Origin: Candidatus Saccharimonadia bacterium | Lineage (GTDB): Bacteria > Patescibacteriota > Saccharimonadia > CAILAD01 > BJGX01 | Assembly: GCA_044234435.1 (NCBI GenBank) | Contig: JBIIIT010000002.1 | Span: forward strand, 1-47,822 | Length of the DNA stretch: 47,822 bases | Direction of reading: 5' to 3' | Shown here: in pieces, positions 12,528 through 43,778 of the stretch | How the letters are laid out: each line of letters starts with the position of its first letter | Numbering within the stretch: the first letter of the stretch is position 1 | Made by a program: the position numbers and the translations under genes | Notes under the pieces: generated by a model | The model's database searches: none | Told to the model about the DNA's origin: nothing | Seen by the model: the letters and a program-made list of their open reading frames with translations, nothing else

Positions 12528-12555
12528 GAAAAAACCCCGCAAATAAATTGCGAGG
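12528..12555 (-). terminator. Intrinsic terminator of GC-rich cassette 1
   Basis: The minus strand reads CCTCGCAA-tttat-TTGCGGGG followed by TTTTTT. The stem contains a G.U pair only in the minus-strand RNA (it is C.A on the plus strand), which supports minus orientation. Confidence 0.7.
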
Positions 12556-12749
12556 TGGGCTATGACCCGAGGGCTTGCTTGGCGAGAGAAGTCGAACTTC
12601 TTCAGCAAACCCCCGGGTCGATCAGTGCCTGGGTCCCTGCGGAGAGGAAGGGTGTGGGCACGTCTGCCAATGCAGGGCCCAGGCTCACGCTAGTGCGTCC
12701 ACTAGCGATTATATGCCGGCAAAGTCAAGCGACGATGCCGGACGAAATA
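12556..12749 (-). other. GC-rich, highly structured 3' untranslated region / candidate ncRNA of cassette 1
   Basis: No ATG and no plausible ORF on the minus strand. At least five stems are present: 12716-12741, 12688-12707 (8 bp with a GACG loop), 12628-12640 pairing with 12672-12683, 12564-12573 pairing with 12610-12619 (10 bp including one G.U), and 12587-12601. Confidence 0.35.
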
Positions 12750-13184
12750 TTAATCGGAAGGAGAGTTAATGCCGGCAGTGCCGGTTTCACTCCGACAATT
12801 TCCGTCTCCGACTGCACTCTGCTGAGTGCCGAAGAGAGAGCTGCCGTTGGAAGGAGGAATTACCTCGATGCCGGAGCATCGTTGGTTTCCTTCCTGCCAA
12901 CTTGCGTAGAGCTTGTAGTCGCTCCACTCAACGGCAATCTCCCGGATGGGGAGGTCGTTGAGCTCGGCGTAGGCTCGAAGCTCTCGCTCGGCCGTGGCAC
13001 GCTCTGTTTCCAGACGCTGGCCGTTGTGGTGAGTCAGCACCAAGAACAAGCTCATTGCCGACAAAGCGAGAACAGTCAGCAGAGTAAAGAAGAACGTCTT
13101 GAGCTTCACCGTTCGAGGCGGCTTGTCGTCGAACTCTTCTTCGCTCTCGATAACTTCCGAATCAATACTTTGGGTTGCCGTCAT
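12750..13184 (-). CDS. GC-rich cassette 1: single-pass membrane protein (144 aa), unknown function
   Basis: AGGAGG (13189-13194) lies 4 nt from the ATG at 13184 (MTATQSIDSE...). The protein has an acidic N-terminal tail, one TM (FFFTLLTVLALSAMSLFLVL) and a C-terminal domain with 2 Cys. Codons are mostly G/C-ending, unlike neighbouring genes. The track start at 13226 falls inside the 5' UTR. Confidence 0.7.
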   Translation of the reverse strand: MTATQSIDSEVIESEEEFDDKPPRTVKLKTFFFTLLTVLALSAMSLFLVLTHHNGQRLETERATAERELRAYAELNDLPIREIAVEWSDYKLYASWQEGNQRCSGIEVIPPSNGSSLFGTQQSAVGDGNCRSETGTAGINSPSD

Positions 13185-13231
13185 GGCACCTCCTGGTTCG
13201 TCAGGGCATACAACACCCTGAATCAAAAGTA

Positions 13232-13260
13232 ATTATAAACTTATATAGTATAAATGTCAA
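13232..13260 (-). promoter_or_regulatory. Consensus sigma-70 promoter of cassette 1
   Basis: The minus strand reads TTGACA (13255-13260), exactly 17 nt, then TATAAT (13232-13237). A 5'-proximal hairpin TCAGGG...CCCTGA follows at 13201-13221. Confidence 0.7.
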
Positions 13261-13286
13261 TAACTAATAGGTGCTAAAATGATATT

Positions 13287-13574
13287 ATGAAAAATACTAA
13301 AAAACATCATTTAATAGATTTATTATTTCGCTGTAAAGATGGAAAATACGTAGTTTTTCAATTTCCCAATCTGCCCTTAATGGTCGCTATTTTTGCTTAT
13401 GGCCTTAGATTGATTATTCCAGCACAGCCCTATAATAATCTTTTAAATGTTTTATTTAATACGGCCTTAATTATATGGGCTATTCTTGAAGTGCTATGGG
13501 GTATTAATCTGTTTAGGCGCCTATTTGGCGCCATTATCCTTGGCTTTGTGTTATTTGGATTGATTATAGGTTAG
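13287..13574 (+). CDS. Small membrane protein (95 aa)
   Basis: Three predicted hydrophobic helices. TGcTAAAAT lies 6 nt upstream of the ATG, with no SD. Confidence 0.5.
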   Translation: MKNTKKHHLIDLLFRCKDGKYVVFQFPNLPLMVAIFAYGLRLIIPAQPYNNLLNVLFNTALIIWAILEVLWGINLFRRLFGAIILGFVLFGLIIG

Positions 13575-18404: not shown

Positions 18405-18809
18405 ATGTCAGAGCTCTATGAAGTTCATAAGGCAATTCGCTACATTTATCCAGAGCAAGCAGTACCTGTAAAGCAAATTGTGTCAGCCCCGACAAGAGAC
18501 CCTTACAGAGTACGTCCAATTTTTGGTGCCATCGGCTTTGACTTTATCAGATTGGTTTTTTTTGAAATCGATACAGGAGAAATGCTTCGCCATATAGTGG
18601 CCGAACCAGAAACTTACTACTGGGGCGACGAAATATCCCTTGAAGAAGCATTGCTTATGAAGGGGCTAGAGGAGATCGACGAAGTGTCGAGCTGTGAGCG
18701 TTTTGTCTATACTGCCTGGGGAGCCTTTATTCCACTAAAGGACAACGAGATGGCCCTACCTTATCCTGAGCTTCCCGAACTACCAGCAAATATGAGGCTG
18801 GATTCATAG
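18405..18809 (+). CDS. Hypothetical protein, paralog A of the 19156 gene (134 aa)
   Basis: TATAAT plus an AAGGAG leader. Shares RYIYPE, GAIGFDF, LRHIV-E-ETYYWG-E, ERF and WG..PLKD blocks with the ORF at 19156. Confidence 0.65.
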   Translation: MSELYEVHKAIRYIYPEQAVPVKQIVSAPTRDPYRVRPIFGAIGFDFIRLVFFEIDTGEMLRHIVAEPETYYWGDEISLEEALLMKGLEEIDEVSSCERFVYTAWGAFIPLKDNEMALPYPELPELPANMRLDS

Positions 18810-19155: not shown

Positions 19156-19557
19156 ATGCAAGAAAGCGAAGTCTATGAGTCTCAGATTGAAGTTTTTAAG
19201 TGTGTGAGATACATTTACCCTGAAGGGGTAATTCCAATCAGGGATTTCGCGCCTCGATTGAGCGAGAACGCTGCTGACGTCGAGCCTGTGAATGGAGCAA
19301 TCGGATTTGATTTCGTCAGTCTCATTTACTTTGACTTCGAAGATCGTCGCCTGCGACACATCGTGGGCGAAGCCGAGACGTATTACTGGGGCCAGGAGCT
19401 TAGTAGGGACGAACTGGCCAATCTGCCAGATACCGATTTCGTTCTGGAGCGAATCTCTACTGAGCGATTCCTGCTAAGTTCATGGGGCGGCATTGTGCCA
19501 CTCAAAGATTTTGAGCATGGAATCACCCCAAATCTTATTCAGGCTCCAAGCAGCTAA
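19156..19557 (+). CDS. Hypothetical protein, paralog B of the 18405 gene (133 aa)
   Basis: Shares the conserved blocks listed for 18405-18809. Visibly more G+C-rich than typical genes here. Followed by a strong terminator. Confidence 0.65.
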   Translation: MQESEVYESQIEVFKCVRYIYPEGVIPIRDFAPRLSENAADVEPVNGAIGFDFVSLIYFDFEDRRLRHIVGEAETYYWGQELSRDELANLPDTDFVLERISTERFLLSSWGGIVPLKDFEHGITPNLIQAPSS

Positions 19558-21923: not shown

Positions 21924-22697
21924 ATGAAGGCTAAAACAATTCAAGGCAAAAAATTACAAAAGTTTAATTTAATTATGGGTTTAATCCATCTGGCACAGGC
22001 CGGGATACTTTTTGCTATTCTCAATTATTCATTTAAAATACCTATCTTAACCAGATTTTTTGATACAACTCCGGGCGGTGGATTTACAGTCATCACAGAA
22101 AGGCTTTGGGAAGTTCCGATTGCAGTAATTGCCCCAATATTCCTACTCATTGCCGCCTTTTTCCATCTATTGATTGCCTCGCCATTATATATTCGCCGCT
22201 ACGAGCAAAATATTAAAAATGGCATCAACCCAATTCGTTGGTGGGAGTATTCTATTAGCTCTTCTTTGATGCTTGTAGGGTTAATGATGATGGCTGGGCT
22301 TACCGAACTTCCTAGTGTAGTTTTTGTTTTTGTACTTAACTGGATAATGAATATGATGGGTCTAATGATGGAGCGCTACAACCAGCTAACAGATAAGACC
22401 AAATGGTTTCCGTACAATATTGGAGTAGTTGCTGGGCTTACCCCGTGGGTAATCGGCTTTATATATTTCTGGGTCAACACCAATAATATCTCTGATTCCA
22501 TACCGTCTTGGGCAAAAATTGGCTTTATTATTACTTTTGTCTTTTTCAACACCTTCGCAATCAATATGCTACTTCAATACAAAAAAGTCGGAAAGTGGAA
22601 GAACTACGTTTATGGAGAAAAGGGCTATATCTGGCTGAGTTTAATAGCTAAATCAGTGCTTGCATGGATAATTGTCCTGGGCACATTAAATCAGTAG
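21924..22697 (+). CDS. Heliorhodopsin
   Basis: 257 aa, 7 TM. The blocks LQKFN..G.IHLAQ, FFHLLIAS, NPIRWWEYSISSS and WLSLIAKSVLAW follow heliorhodopsin 48C12 as I recall it. The Schiff-base Lys is present (K243, nt 22650-22652), as are counterion Glu E108 and His22/His81. Confidence 0.9.
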   Translation: MKAKTIQGKKLQKFNLIMGLIHLAQAGILFAILNYSFKIPILTRFFDTTPGGGFTVITERLWEVPIAVIAPIFLLIAAFFHLLIASPLYIRRYEQNIKNGINPIRWWEYSISSSLMLVGLMMMAGLTELPSVVFVFVLNWIMNMMGLMMERYNQLTDKTKWFPYNIGVVAGLTPWVIGFIYFWVNTNNISDSIPSWAKIGFIITFVFFNTFAINMLLQYKKVGKWKNYVYGEKGYIWLSLIAKSVLAWIIVLGTLNQ

Positions 22698-42770: not shown

Positions 42771-42801
42771 GAAAAGCCGCACTACGTCGTTGTAGTGCGG
42801 C
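42771..42801 (-). terminator. Intrinsic terminator of GC-rich cassette 2
   Basis: The minus strand reads GCCGCACTAC-aacgac-GTAGTGCGGC (perfect 10-bp stem) followed by TTTTC. Confidence 0.7.
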
Positions 42802-42821
42802 CGGGAGTCGAGTTGATCGAC

Positions 42822-43121
42822 TCAGTTGTAAATGCTCTGGGAGTGAGTCTGATCCTCGTAGAGCATCCTGAAGTAGTCGGCTTCCGCCTTCAGCTCGGTG
42901 TACATGTAGTGCACGCCGGCGATGACGCCGATCAGAATCGACACGAGGGGAGCCCACTCCCAGAAGGAGTTCAGTCCCTTGTCGGAGACCACTCCGACGG
43001 CGTTCAGGCCACCGAAGATGGCTGCGATGCAGCCCAGGGAGAAGATCATGGTGTATGCGTACACGATGACCGAGCGCCACTTGACGCTCTTGGCCGGGTT
43101 GGGCCGAATGAACTTGTACAT
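42822..43121 (-). CDS. GC-rich cassette 2: two-TM small membrane protein (99 aa), unknown function
   Basis: AAGGAGG (43126-43132) lies 4 nt from the ATG at 43121. Strongly G/C-ending codons. Two TM helices followed by an amphipathic charged tail (TELKAEADYFRMLYEDQ). Confidence 0.7.
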   Translation of the reverse strand: MYKFIRPNPAKSVKWRSVIVYAYTMIFSLGCIAAIFGGLNAVGVVSDKGLNSFWEWAPLVSILIGVIAGVHYMYTELKAEADYFRMLYEDQTHSQSIYN

Positions 43122-43164
43122 GGTGCCTCCTTAGGCAGGGTAACCGACCTGGTTACGGCCTGAA

Positions 43165-43193
43165 ATTATACTAAATATGCTTAATTTTGTCAA
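43165..43193 (-). promoter_or_regulatory. Consensus sigma-70 promoter of cassette 2
   Basis: The minus strand reads TTGACA (43188-43193), exactly 17 nt, then TATAAT (43165-43170). A 5'-proximal hairpin (CAGG-GTAACC ... GGTTAC-GG-CCTG) follows at 43136-43162. Confidence 0.7.
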
Positions 43194-43204
43194 TATATTA
43201 TGTC

Positions 43205-43241
43205 GAAAATAAAACAGCACTGTCATATAACGACAGTGCTG
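43205..43241 (-). terminator. Intrinsic terminator of GC-rich cassette 3
   Basis: The minus strand reads CAGCACTGTC-gttatat-GACAGTGCTG (perfect 10-bp stem) followed by TTTTATTTT. Confidence 0.75.
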
Positions 43242-43257
43242 CAGCAGTACATACAAC

Positions 43258-43716
43258 TCAGACCATGCTGTGCGATGTGCCGAAGCTATCAGCCAGCCGG
43301 GTAAGTGCGATCTGCTCCTGCTGGAGTTGTTTCACTTCCCTTCGGTAGATATCGGCGGATGAGTAGTATCCGTTCGACAAGGCCTGCTGGATTCTCTTCT
43401 CCATCTTTGCAATGGACTCCGACAAGATCGCCAATCTCTGCAAGAGTGATGCAGCCATTGCCTGACGTGCGTACTCGCCGACCTTGTCCATGAGCTCGGG
43501 CTTTTCCTGGATAGCATCCAAGAACTGCAAGGTTCCCTCGATGTCTGCGTGCCTCTGTGTCAGCTGCGCAGTCTCCTGACGATGGCTGAACATCGCCAGG
43601 TAGTACGCGCGCTTCTGCTCTCGCAGTAGCAAGAGCATGAACACCATTAGCATTAGTCCTAGTACTGAGATTCCTAGGATCAATTCTCTGCTGTTTACTA
43701 TCTCTTCGAAGCTCAT
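43258..43716 (-). CDS. GC-rich cassette 3: N-terminally anchored helical protein (152 aa), unknown function
   Basis: AGGAGG (43721-43726) lies 4 nt from the ATG at 43716 (MSFEEIVNS...). One TM (LILGISVLGLMLMVFMLLLL), then a long Gln/Glu/Leu-rich helical region. The track start at 43749 abuts the -10 box (43750-43755), upstream of the expected transcription start. Confidence 0.7.
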   Translation of the reverse strand: MSFEEIVNSRELILGISVLGLMLMVFMLLLLREQKRAYYLAMFSHRQETAQLTQRHADIEGTLQFLDAIQEKPELMDKVGEYARQAMAASLLQRLAILSESIAKMEKRIQQALSNGYYSSADIYRREVKQLQQEQIALTRLADSFGTSHSMV

Positions 43717-43749
43717 GTTTCCTCCTGAGCTGTTGGGTACGATGCGCAT

Positions 43750-43778
43750 ATTCTAGGCTATTATAAATTTTTTGTCAA
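43750..43778 (-). promoter_or_regulatory. Near-consensus sigma-70 promoter of cassette 3
   Basis: The minus strand reads TTGACA (43773-43778), exactly 17 nt, then TAGAAT (43750-43755). Confidence 0.6.

Follow-up and report, generated by a model that had tools for sequence, protein, structure and literature searches.

Several described systems share parts of their design with a transcription unit, here called cassette c1, which lies at positions 12528-13260 on the minus strand of a 47,822-nucleotide stretch of DNA from Candidatus Saccharimonadia bacterium (assembly GCA_044234435.1, contig JBIIIT010000002.1; the whole stretch that was analysed is referred to as the window). Like c1, the Escherichia coli genes lpp and ompA (the latter with its stem-loop in the 5′ untranslated region, UTR) are monocistronic and combine a strong promoter, a 5′ hairpin, a strong Shine-Dalgarno (SD) sequence, a small envelope protein and a terminator hairpin, and the long-lived mRNA of these genes is a property that c1 probably has as well. 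In contrast to lpp and ompA, to which it is related neither in sequence nor in fold, c1 has a transcript that lies as a whole 15-20 GC points above the genome, a conserved multi-hairpin 3′UTR of ~150 nt and an open reading frame (ORF) that appears to be swapped between species, and its expression is a prediction.

A 3′UTR that is more conserved than the coding sequence upstream of it is a hallmark by which 3′UTR-derived small RNAs (sRNAs) are found, as with CpxQ (from cpxP) and DapZ (from dapB). The c1 3′UTR shares this hallmark and resembles these sRNAs further in its structured, terminator-bearing 3′ end, in an invariant single-stranded stretch that could be a seed, and in having a putative envelope-protein gene as its parent. 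It differs from CpxQ and DapZ in that it is known here as a sequence, has no Rfam match, and yielded no target, its pairing with its own SD being unsupported. A further parallel is found in loci of the pilin, capsule, O-antigen or pherotype type, where, as in c1, divergent alleles (31% identity) lie between near-identical flanks, are incongruent with the genome backbone, and have their breakpoints in conserved arms. Unlike in such allele-replacement loci, the arms of c1 would be its own promoter and 3′UTR RNA instead of neighbouring genes, and no silent donor copies of c1 were found in the window.

An autonomous promoter-gene-terminator unit whose composition deviates from the surrounding genome is the classic anatomy of phage morons, and atypical genomic islets show it too. 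c1 shares this anatomy, but is chromosomal, syntenic and vertically persistent, has no phage association, and has a composition that seems to be maintained and not to ameliorate. Finally, type IV pilins are made in large amounts, evolve fast and recombine, and type IV pili are important in the contact between Saccharibacteria and their hosts. The structural model of c1 recalls the pilin "lollipop", with a long N-terminal helix that is hydrophobic in its first half, an antiparallel beta-sheet and two conserved cysteines. Unlike pilins, c1 has no conserved Gly-1/Glu+5, and an acidic tail of 27 residues stands in place of the short basic leader.

Saccharibacteria are obligate episymbionts, the cultivated ones growing on Actinomycetota hosts, and we know of few described molecules of their contact surface. 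The window comes from a freshwater Saccharibacterium, its GltX being 83% and 82% identical to those of the two closest metagenome-assembled genomes (MAGs; Candidatus Saccharimonadia from Lake Mendota and Saccharibacteria from Lake Biwa, respectively). We consider it slightly better than an even bet (a probability of roughly 55%) that c1 is a native, lineage-specific transcription unit of freshwater Saccharibacteria whose high GC content is selected on the transcript and whose ORF is swapped between species. This reading draws on the anatomy, conservation and synteny of the cassette, on its mosaicism and coding constraint, and on RNA covariation and excess mRNA folding. As a small membrane protein that evolves fast in comparison with its neighbours and seems to be exchanged between species, c1 would be a concrete candidate for a determinant at the interface with host or phage. 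The locus also adds a structured RNA motif to a phylum with almost no described regulatory RNAs.

Anatomy, distribution and protein family of c1

The window as a whole has a GC content of 40.0%. The c1 island (12557-13225) contains 378 G or C among 669 positions (56.5%) as compared to 40% and 36% in its two flanks, and the change is abrupt, with 39/60 at 12601-12660 and 11/60 at 13261-13320. The cassette consists of the following elements:

13232..13260, minus strand: sigma-70-type promoter, TTGACA-17 nt-TATAAT, matching the consensus at 12 of 12 positions
13202..13221, minus strand: 5′-proximal mRNA stem-loop, UCAGGGUGU...GCCCUGA, 9-bp stem, -13.1 kcal/mol
13189..13194, minus strand: SD sequence AGGAGG, 4 nt ahead of the ATG at 13184
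12750..13184, minus strand: ORF of c1, predicted 144-aa bitopic membrane protein with one hydrophobic segment
13017..13103, minus strand: transmembrane (TM) segment, codons 28-56, the most variable part of the ORF
12753..13016, minus strand: ectodomain, codons 57-144, modelled as a helix extension and three beta-strands, with two invariant cysteines
12715..12743, minus strand: hairpin H1 (CCGGCA...UGCCGG), from the predicted fold
12688..12707, minus strand: hairpin H2 (CGCUAGUG-GACG-CACUAGCG), 3 of 8 pairs changed on both sides
12627..12684, minus strand: hairpin H3, whose apical part varies and which contains the invariant unpaired tract CCCUUCCUCUCC
12564..12619, minus strand: hairpin H4 (GACCCGGGGGUUUGCUG...CAAGCAAGCCCUCGGGUC), from predicted fold and covariation
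12528..12556, minus strand: intrinsic terminator read from the sequence, 9-bp stem (hairpin 12556-12534) and U-run

The promoter hexamers and the spacer length are unchanged in the orthologous loci L002, L053, L010, L060 and L056. The arms of the 5′ hairpin (CAGGGUGUU/...GCCCUG, about 13221-13202) show compensatory changes, from CAGGG/CCCUG in the window and L010 to CGAGG/CCUCG in L058 and L045 and CGGGG/CCUCG in L056, and the hairpin would stabilise the mRNA. Between stop codon and terminator lie 193 nt of 3′UTR with a minimum free energy of -109 kcal/mol (z = -9.1). The terminator, whose stem is retained in orthologues through G-U/A-U changes, lies 10 nt beyond the stop codon of the convergent SDR gene and shows no U-tract when read on the plus strand. 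The same junctions are found on independent contigs of JGI, ENA, NCBI and Logan assemblies, and the island is thus not an assembly chimera.

A preliminary description of this DNA had reported the shift in composition, a complete c1 module (promoter, 5′ hairpin, SD, 144-aa single-pass protein, ~190 nt of structured RNA and terminator), its recurrence twice at 42.8-43.8 kb, and the absence of integrase, transposase or flanking repeats. Recounting gave the same G+C values, and all coordinates of the module were confirmed. The two further cassettes, c2 and c3, have the same promoter spacing and AGGAGG-N4-ATG, with an 11/12 promoter in c3. No flanking repeats were found around c1 in a repeat check, nor any mobility genes among its neighbours (SDR, NUDIX/idi, ABC and RNR genes). 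That the organism might be an episymbiont, as had been guessed, agrees with its assignment to the Saccharibacteria by GltX, and the suggested check for chimerism was passed on the independent contigs.

On its other side (13261-13290 in the window), the promoter of c1 stands back to back with the apparently leaderless promoter (-10 box TAAAAT) of a divergent gene for a 95-aa membrane protein (p95, start 13287), and both lie in a common intergenic region of ~100 nt. An antisense ORF of 225 aa (plus strand, 12555-13232) was dismissed as a gene: it is open in the window and L002 only, and is cut to 66-74 aa in L010, L060 and L056. A possible internal promoter in the 3′UTR (TTGACT...TATAAT) was likewise rejected, its boxes being 9 nt apart and not conserved.

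c1 sits beside idi in at least six related lineages, and between SDR and idi in most of them. The gene order SDR, c1, p95, idi (NUDIX), ABC is found in the window, L001-L008, L053, L010, L060 and L056/57; L058 and L059 keep the p95/idi/ABC side with another gene opposite, and in L045 c1 adjoins idi. Nine close homologues, all metagenomic, are 80-90% identical to c1. The diverged orthologues in L010 (a Lake Biwa MAG; 31-33% identical, same site) and L045 (a Baikal MAG) surfaced only through tblastn on Saccharibacteria loci fetched as GltX neighbourhoods, and a pattern search of the GTDB representative genomes with the close-family alignment gave no match. A hidden Markov model search of 1.84 billion representative proteins returned ~15 small clusters of homologues of 136-165 aa with the same layout. 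Each of those whose DNA was read lies in an AT-rich, Saccharibacteria-type context, and members at 27-30% identity (L056/57, L058, L059, L060) again adjoin p95/idi. One member, MCA9309342.1 from Candidatus Saccharibacteria bacterium, lies beside an ATP synthase operon and genes for an ArsR-type regulator, a glutaredoxin, a thioredoxin and a DsbD-like protein. The distant members L051 and L052 (on short contigs) and L054 are built alike: between AT-rich flanks, TTGACT-17-TAnnAT, 5′ hairpin and SD precede an ORF of 60-63% GC, with a G+C content at third codon positions (GC3) of 0.77-0.84, and 3′ hairpins and a terminator come after it. In the orthologues L002-L010, GC is 0.53-0.56 in the ORF and about 0.60 in the 3′UTR, and the high GC of the cassette is kept in every contig with a close homologue that was read. 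Profile matches to repeat proteins of 400-2000 aa (P0019, P0034-36) were discarded as spurious (hhalign probability 2.8%). No published description of these cassettes or of their RNA was found in the literature.

The protein appears to define a new family, in which a variable tail and TM segment are joined to a two-cysteine ectodomain under purifying selection. c1 is a genuine protein-coding gene. Its ratio of nonsynonymous to synonymous substitution rates (dN/dS) is about 0.3 for the whole protein. By region, the ratio is 0.35-0.53 for the acidic N-terminal tail (alleles compared with that of the window), about 0.4-1.2 for the TM segment, and 0.10-0.20 for the ectodomain (the C-terminal 88 residues). 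Among alleles of type A, nucleotide identity drops to 56-58% in the TM segment, as compared to 88-98% on either side of it. Kyte-Doolittle hydrophobic windows begin at residues 26-35. Across 20 family members, the invariant columns include R67, E68, L69, A73, V85, W96, C103, C130 and G138, and the family consensus reads RELRAYA..LP..I.V....L.ASW.QGNQ.C...PP....LW.T...GSG.C.T.GS.GI. An AlphaFold2 model (pLDDT 79) predicts a long helix (residues 24-75), the first part of which would span the membrane, followed by three beta-strands. The hydrophobic segment has basic residues ahead of it and the cysteines behind it, which suggests an N-in/C-out topology and a disulfide bond in the ectodomain.

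In Pfam, NCBIfam, PHROGs and PDB sequence profiles, the proteins of the three cassettes had no match apart from that of c2 to a holin PHROG. The resemblance of the c1 model to type IV pilins does not extend to their defining features, and c1 was rejected as a pilin: it has no class III signal peptide, neither G nor E is conserved among the 20 family members where the hydrophobic segment begins, there was no match to N_methyl or pilin families in Pfam, and no pilin is among the 50 best Foldseek PDB matches listed. A type I toxin-antitoxin system was dismissed as well, given the length of the protein (type I toxins are < about 60 aa), its conserved ectodomain and the lack of conservation of the antisense ORF; nor was a promoter-like site found on the opposite strand within the cassette.

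Allele exchange and the structured 3′ RNA

Judging from flanking genes, the contigs fall into backbone groups, namely W (window, L001, L053, L008) and B (L002/3, L010, L060). Between the window and L010, protein identity is 85% for SDR, 71% for p95, 77% for idi and 90% for ABC, and only 31% for c1; synonymous sites in the flanks are near or at saturation (proportion of synonymous differences, pS, 0.66-0.94). The backbone of L002 belongs to group B, with SDR 96-97% and ABC 98% identical to L010 and L060. Its c1, however, is 82% identical to that of the window, while L010 and L060 carry the 31% type, and the synonymous distance (dS) between window and L002 is 0.33 in c1, with saturated flanks. 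L002 is 78-98% identical to L010 on the upstream side of the -10 box (about 13235) and again beyond the terminator. Over the stretch between transcription start and ORF end it matches the window at 88-98%, with a lower value (56-78%) in the TM block. All sequences converge within the 3′ RNA. According to sliding identity, the breakpoints thus lie at the -10 box/transcription start and within the 3′ RNA. There is also mosaicism below the level of the gene, as between L002 and L053, where dS is 0.05 in the TM segment and 0.38 in the ectodomain. The mismatch between ORF type and backbone in L002, the breakpoints in the arms and the sub-genic mosaics indicate that the 5′UTR and ORF of c1 are exchanged between related species, apparently by homologous recombination with the promoter and the 3′ RNA as arms. 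This exchange between conserved regulatory arms, as well as the conserved structured 3′ RNA itself, goes beyond what the preliminary description had proposed.

The 3′UTR of c1 appears to be a new structured RNA that is more conserved than the protein and is backed by compensatory changes. Between window and L010 it is 86-98% identical, where the ORF reaches only 14-52%. Its conserved core of ~150 nt comprises H2-H4 (12710-12564). H1 shows a compensatory change (CCGACA/UGUCGG) in L002 and L053, but is absent in L056 and L058 and thus not part of the core. In an alignment of eight sequences from about five lineages, 47 pairs were followed: 97.7% of the cells are paired, and 6 pairs are changed on both sides, a number reached by none of 500 shuffles, with slid controls giving 0-2. 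In the lower stem of H4, 3 of 16 pairs are compensatory with all cells paired; the upper stem of 7 pairs is invariable. As an example of changes on both sides, GACCCGGGGG/CCCUCGGGUC of H4 becomes GGUCCGAGAG/CUCUCGGACC in L056. G-U pairs assign the RNA to the strand of c1.

The tract CCCUUCCUCUCC, an unpaired CU-rich 12-mer at 12652-12641 in H3, is found nowhere else in the window, and each orthologous locus has it once. It is unchanged in every orthologue read except L010 (CCCUUCUCCUCC). L058 keeps H3 with a re-written stem (GGCCCGGGACCUGCG/CGCAGGGGCCCGGGCC) and has lost H4; the whole 3′ RNA is lost in L059 and L045, and all three keep the ORF. A covariance model of the RNA matched only the c1 locus in 763 kb of Saccharibacteria sequence. 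Rfam gave nothing at gathering score in the window (the best sub-threshold match in the island scored 18.5 bits, with a cut-off of 38), and a known RNA gene (rRNA, tRNA, tmRNA, SRP, 6S, RNase P) was set aside, as neither Rfam (gathering score; E <= 10) nor ARAGORN yielded a match. Pairing of CCCUUCCUCUCC with the SD/5′UTR of the same cassette, in an icaR-like circularisation, was dismissed too, being no better than that of shuffled motifs in 7 orthologues. The 3′UTRs of L051, L052 and L054 contain no H2-H4, but a long hairpin with a CU-rich 3′ arm (CUCCCACCUCC, CUUCCCACCCUCC) that is reminiscent of the invariant CCCUUCCUCUCC.

Possible causes of the high GC content

c1 is one of three cassettes in the window. 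TTGACA-N17-TAKAAT occurs at 3 sites as compared to 0.03 expected, and these sites are exactly those of the window's only three GC islands; AGGAGG-N4-ATG occurs 6 times as compared to 0.31 expected. The other two cassettes are:

42775..43193, minus strand: cassette c2, with TTGACA-17-TATAAT, 5′ hairpin, AGGAGG-N4-ATG, ORF and terminator
43214..43778, minus strand: cassette c3, with TTGACA-17-TAGAAT, AGGAGG-N4-ATG, ORF and terminator

The c2 promoter (43193-43165) matches the consensus at 12 of 12 positions and that of c3 (43778-43750) at 11 of 12. Their ORFs encode a 99-aa protein with two predicted TM segments (c2, 43121..42822, minus strand) and a 152-aa helical protein with an N-terminal TM segment (c3, 43716..43258, minus strand). 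GC3 is 0.63, 0.87 and 0.69 for c1, c2 and c3, as compared to 0.377 +/- 0.044 (maximum 0.46) in the other 39 genes of the window, which served as background for the comparisons of GC3, folding and start sites. In these three unrelated cassettes, the GC edges coincide with the predicted transcript ends, i.e., transcription start and terminator. When compared to synonymous shuffles, the ORFs fold with z of -2.95 (c1), -4.32 (c2) and -3.07 (c3), all lower than any background gene (mean -0.45, standard deviation 0.97, minimum -2.76). Since the ORFs out-fold both shuffles and background, and since the GC edges fall on the transcript ends, we infer selection on the transcript. The ATP-synthase genes of L054 reach a GC3 of 0.40-0.51 as compared to 0.77 for the c1 homologue there, and the codon choice of the cassettes is thus not that of well-expressed genes in general. 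The two c1 alleles, at 31% identity, both have a GC3 of 0.60-0.68, with UTRs of ~60% GC, and the excess persists between orthologues of 27-32% identity whose flanks are saturated at synonymous sites. Its retention across such divergence argues that the composition is maintained and is not an un-ameliorated relic.

In our preferred reading, the consensus promoter, 5′ stem-loop and consensus SD would drive a monocistronic mRNA that encodes a small N-in/C-out bitopic envelope protein with a variable cytoplasmic tail and TM helix and a conserved, probably disulfide-bonded ectodomain. The mRNA would end in the ~150-nt structured RNA (H2-H4 with the CU-rich 12-mer) and the intrinsic terminator. Selection would keep its G+C content high, most likely in favour of an mRNA that is heavily folded, resists nucleases and thus gives very high expression, and the conserved promoter and 3′ RNA would double as homology arms through which divergent ORF alleles circulate on near-identical scaffolds. 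Swapping of this kind is typically seen in exposed envelope proteins on which host contact or phage exert diversifying pressure, and by analogy c1 may be surface-exposed, with a role in the envelope or at the host interface. The preliminary description had offered, as its second option, that these might be highly expressed proteins of the envelope or host interface from an uncharacterised family: the family itself, with its predicted membrane anchor and cysteine-bearing ectodomain, has stood up, while high expression, mRNA stabilisation and the interface role are predicted.

Several points weigh against this reading. The promoter and the transcription start, like mRNA half-life and protein abundance, are predicted from the DNA, and the folding excess is modest beside the background tail (minimum -2.76). 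The RNA covariation comes from about 5 independent lineages, and for c2 and c3 the conclusions drawn on c1 would be carried over by likeness of anatomy. The GC excess is weaker in L059 and L056 (GC3 0.46 and 0.53), and a Foldseek search with the c1 model gave no functional clue (best E = 1.2 in PDB, and 0.098 against viral structures in BFVD). Recombination itself could raise GC through biased gene conversion. Moreover, the site is cleanly empty in L024, which is closely related to L045: the region upstream of idi runs there directly into tRNA-Glu, so that the cassette is dispensable in some lineages. A comparison of L024 (15580-15700) with L045 (4724-5520) shows a clean indel of ~690 nt that corresponds to the whole cassette and abuts the 3′ end of tRNA-Glu(CTC); the two idi genes are roughly 85% identical by eye, and a deletion is the best reading of the empty site.

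Sharp GC islands in AT-rich genomes are usually taken as a sign of horizontal transfer, and the preliminary description had indeed proposed foreign high-GC genes, for instance from an actinobacterial host, under strong native signals, with the GC content as un-ameliorated donor composition. The abrupt break in composition, GC3 values up to 0.87, the orphan status of the cassette proteins and the Actinomycetota hosts of cultivated Saccharibacteria are in line with such a donor. The same gene is found, however, at the same site and with the same composition in at least six diverged lineages, which is what that description itself had named as speaking against its proposal; of the relatives compared, only L024 has an empty site. 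GC3 remains at 0.60-0.68 across alleles of 31% identity with saturated flanks and reaches 0.77-0.84 in distant members, without a sign of amelioration. In GC content the non-coding UTRs equal the ORF, and the island ends where the transcript is predicted to end. No homologue outside Saccharibacteria-like contexts was found among 1.84 billion representative proteins or 5.8 billion clusters, and the suggested donor search by sequence and structure brought up neither an Actinomycetota-type nor a phage homologue, nor a significant fold match. Of the features of a genomic island, c1 thus has the atypical composition, but not patchy presence, donor homologues, mobility signatures (mobility genes or repeats, phage or plasmid matches) or amelioration, and we regard a foreign donor as the least probable of all explanations. 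Horizontal movement does seem to occur, but as homologous allele replacement between related Saccharibacteria. The case of c1, in which transfer gives way to a composition maintained on the transcript, calls for caution in composition-based detection of horizontal transfer in genomes of the candidate phyla radiation. Hardly more probable are modules left by a prophage, moron-like or for defence or toxicity (holin-like, superinfection-exclusion or type I toxin-like membrane proteins). They would account for autonomous units of deviant composition, with own promoter and terminator around a single ORF, for the fact that all three encode small membrane proteins, one of them (c2) with a weak match to a holin PHROG (E = 0.018), and for the difference in presence between L045 and L024 beside a tRNA gene. 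Against them, no phage genes lie near the cassettes in the annotated parts of the window and the location is not in a phage or prophage; no matches with meaningful E-values were found in IMG/VR (pattern search), INPHARED (tblastn, blastn) or PHROGs, nor for c1 in PLSDB (tblastn), and no fold match in BFVD. Chromosomal synteny is stable across lineages, and c1 with its 144 aa and conserved ectodomain is unlike type I toxins.

Two further explanations are less remote, though we hold both to be unlikely. A serious rival is GC-biased gene conversion: the cassette would be a recombination hot spot, and its GC excess would arise as a by-product, without selection on the RNA. Biased gene conversion in bacteria is reportedly an established hypothesis, associated with Lassalle et al. 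2015. Recombination between species and below the level of the gene is found at exactly this segment, the GC-rich tract is the exchanged tract, and the enrichment lies mainly in third codon positions and non-coding UTR. On the other hand, reported effects on GC3 amount to a few points, not 25-50, and the edges are base-sharp at transcription start and terminator in three unrelated cassettes. Furthermore, the ORFs out-fold synonymous permutations of the same codons, which composition alone cannot achieve, and the 3′ RNA, as the most conserved part, is the most GC-rich and shows compensatory changes. To a similar degree we doubt that the RNA is the main product and the ORF secondary, i.e., that c1 is a non-coding or dual-function gene whose 3′UTR-derived sRNA acts through a CU-rich seed on purine-rich (SD-like) targets or titrates a protein. 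Such a role would fit the conservation and covariation of the 3′ RNA (86-98% identity where ORFs are 31% identical), its near-invariant unpaired CCCUUCCUCUCC and the recurrence of CU-rich tracts in 3′ hairpins of distant family members. It is at odds with the purifying selection on the ectodomain (dN/dS about 0.1) in a family of ~15 clusters, and with the lineages that have lost H4 (L058) or the whole RNA (L059 and L045) and retained the ORF. Nor does the 3′UTR have an internal promoter; shuffled versions of the CU tract pair with the SD of the cassette as well as the tract itself does, and c2 and c3 do without a long 3′UTR.

A bolder form of the preferred reading would see in the cassettes a class of "transcript islands" kept by freshwater Saccharibacteria, i.e., GC-rich, hyper-structured and maximally expressed mRNAs for small orphan envelope proteins. 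The arms of c1 would serve to swap alleles of a surface determinant under frequency-dependent selection, and its 3′UTR would release a trans-acting sRNA with an anti-SD-like CU-rich seed. The swapped determinant may, for example, act in host attachment, set the host range or be a phage receptor. We consider this form speculative and rather improbable as a whole, if somewhat less so than gene conversion or an RNA product.

Relatives of c2 and c3 and the genome background

Homologues of c2 and c3 are few: for c2 only 4 were found (67-97% identical, all metagenomic), and for c3 also only 4 (64-100% identical). In the leader of c3 (43735-43727), a CGTACC-like box lies between the 5′ hairpin and the SD, and such a box is also present in the leaders of L010, L060, L045 and L054, which are otherwise unrelated. 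In L054 (Saccharibacteria GCA_020427905.1, 3360-4773), two GC-rich small orphan ORFs with multiple TM segments lie upstream of the c1 homologue. They encode 66 and 115 aa with GC3 of 0.55 and 0.66, and have similar 5′UTRs (hairpin, CAGCGTA, then SD). The region looks like a cluster of such cassettes beside thiol-disulfide genes (ArsR, glutaredoxin, thioredoxin, DsbD-like).

The signals of the other window genes differ from those of the cassettes. An SD is missing in about 28 of the 39 background genes, and in 9 of the 39 a -10-like hexamer ends 6-7 nt ahead of the start codon, as compared to 1.8% of random positions. Starts of this kind are found, for example, at:

4455, 13287, 13584, 32262, 33853, 35555 and 44947
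26469 and 39264, minus strand

Leaderless or SD-less initiation thus seems to be the norm in this genome, and with most background genes lacking an SD and 9 of the 39 apparently leaderless, the leadered, SD-driven cassettes stand out even more. A mild GC bump at 19.2-19.5 kb was considered as a fourth cassette and rejected, since it is a paralogous gene pair without consensus signals. These tandem paralogues of 134 and 133 aa, with no family assigned, lie at 18405-18809 and 19156-19557 (plus strand) and have the common motifs YIYPE...IGFDF...RHIV.E.ETYYWG; the second is the one with the mildly raised GC. A putative heliorhodopsin gene (257-aa ORF, 21924-22697, plus strand), assigned via the near-identical contig L001, adjoins a TspO/MBR gene, which fits a Saccharibacterium from sunlit freshwater.

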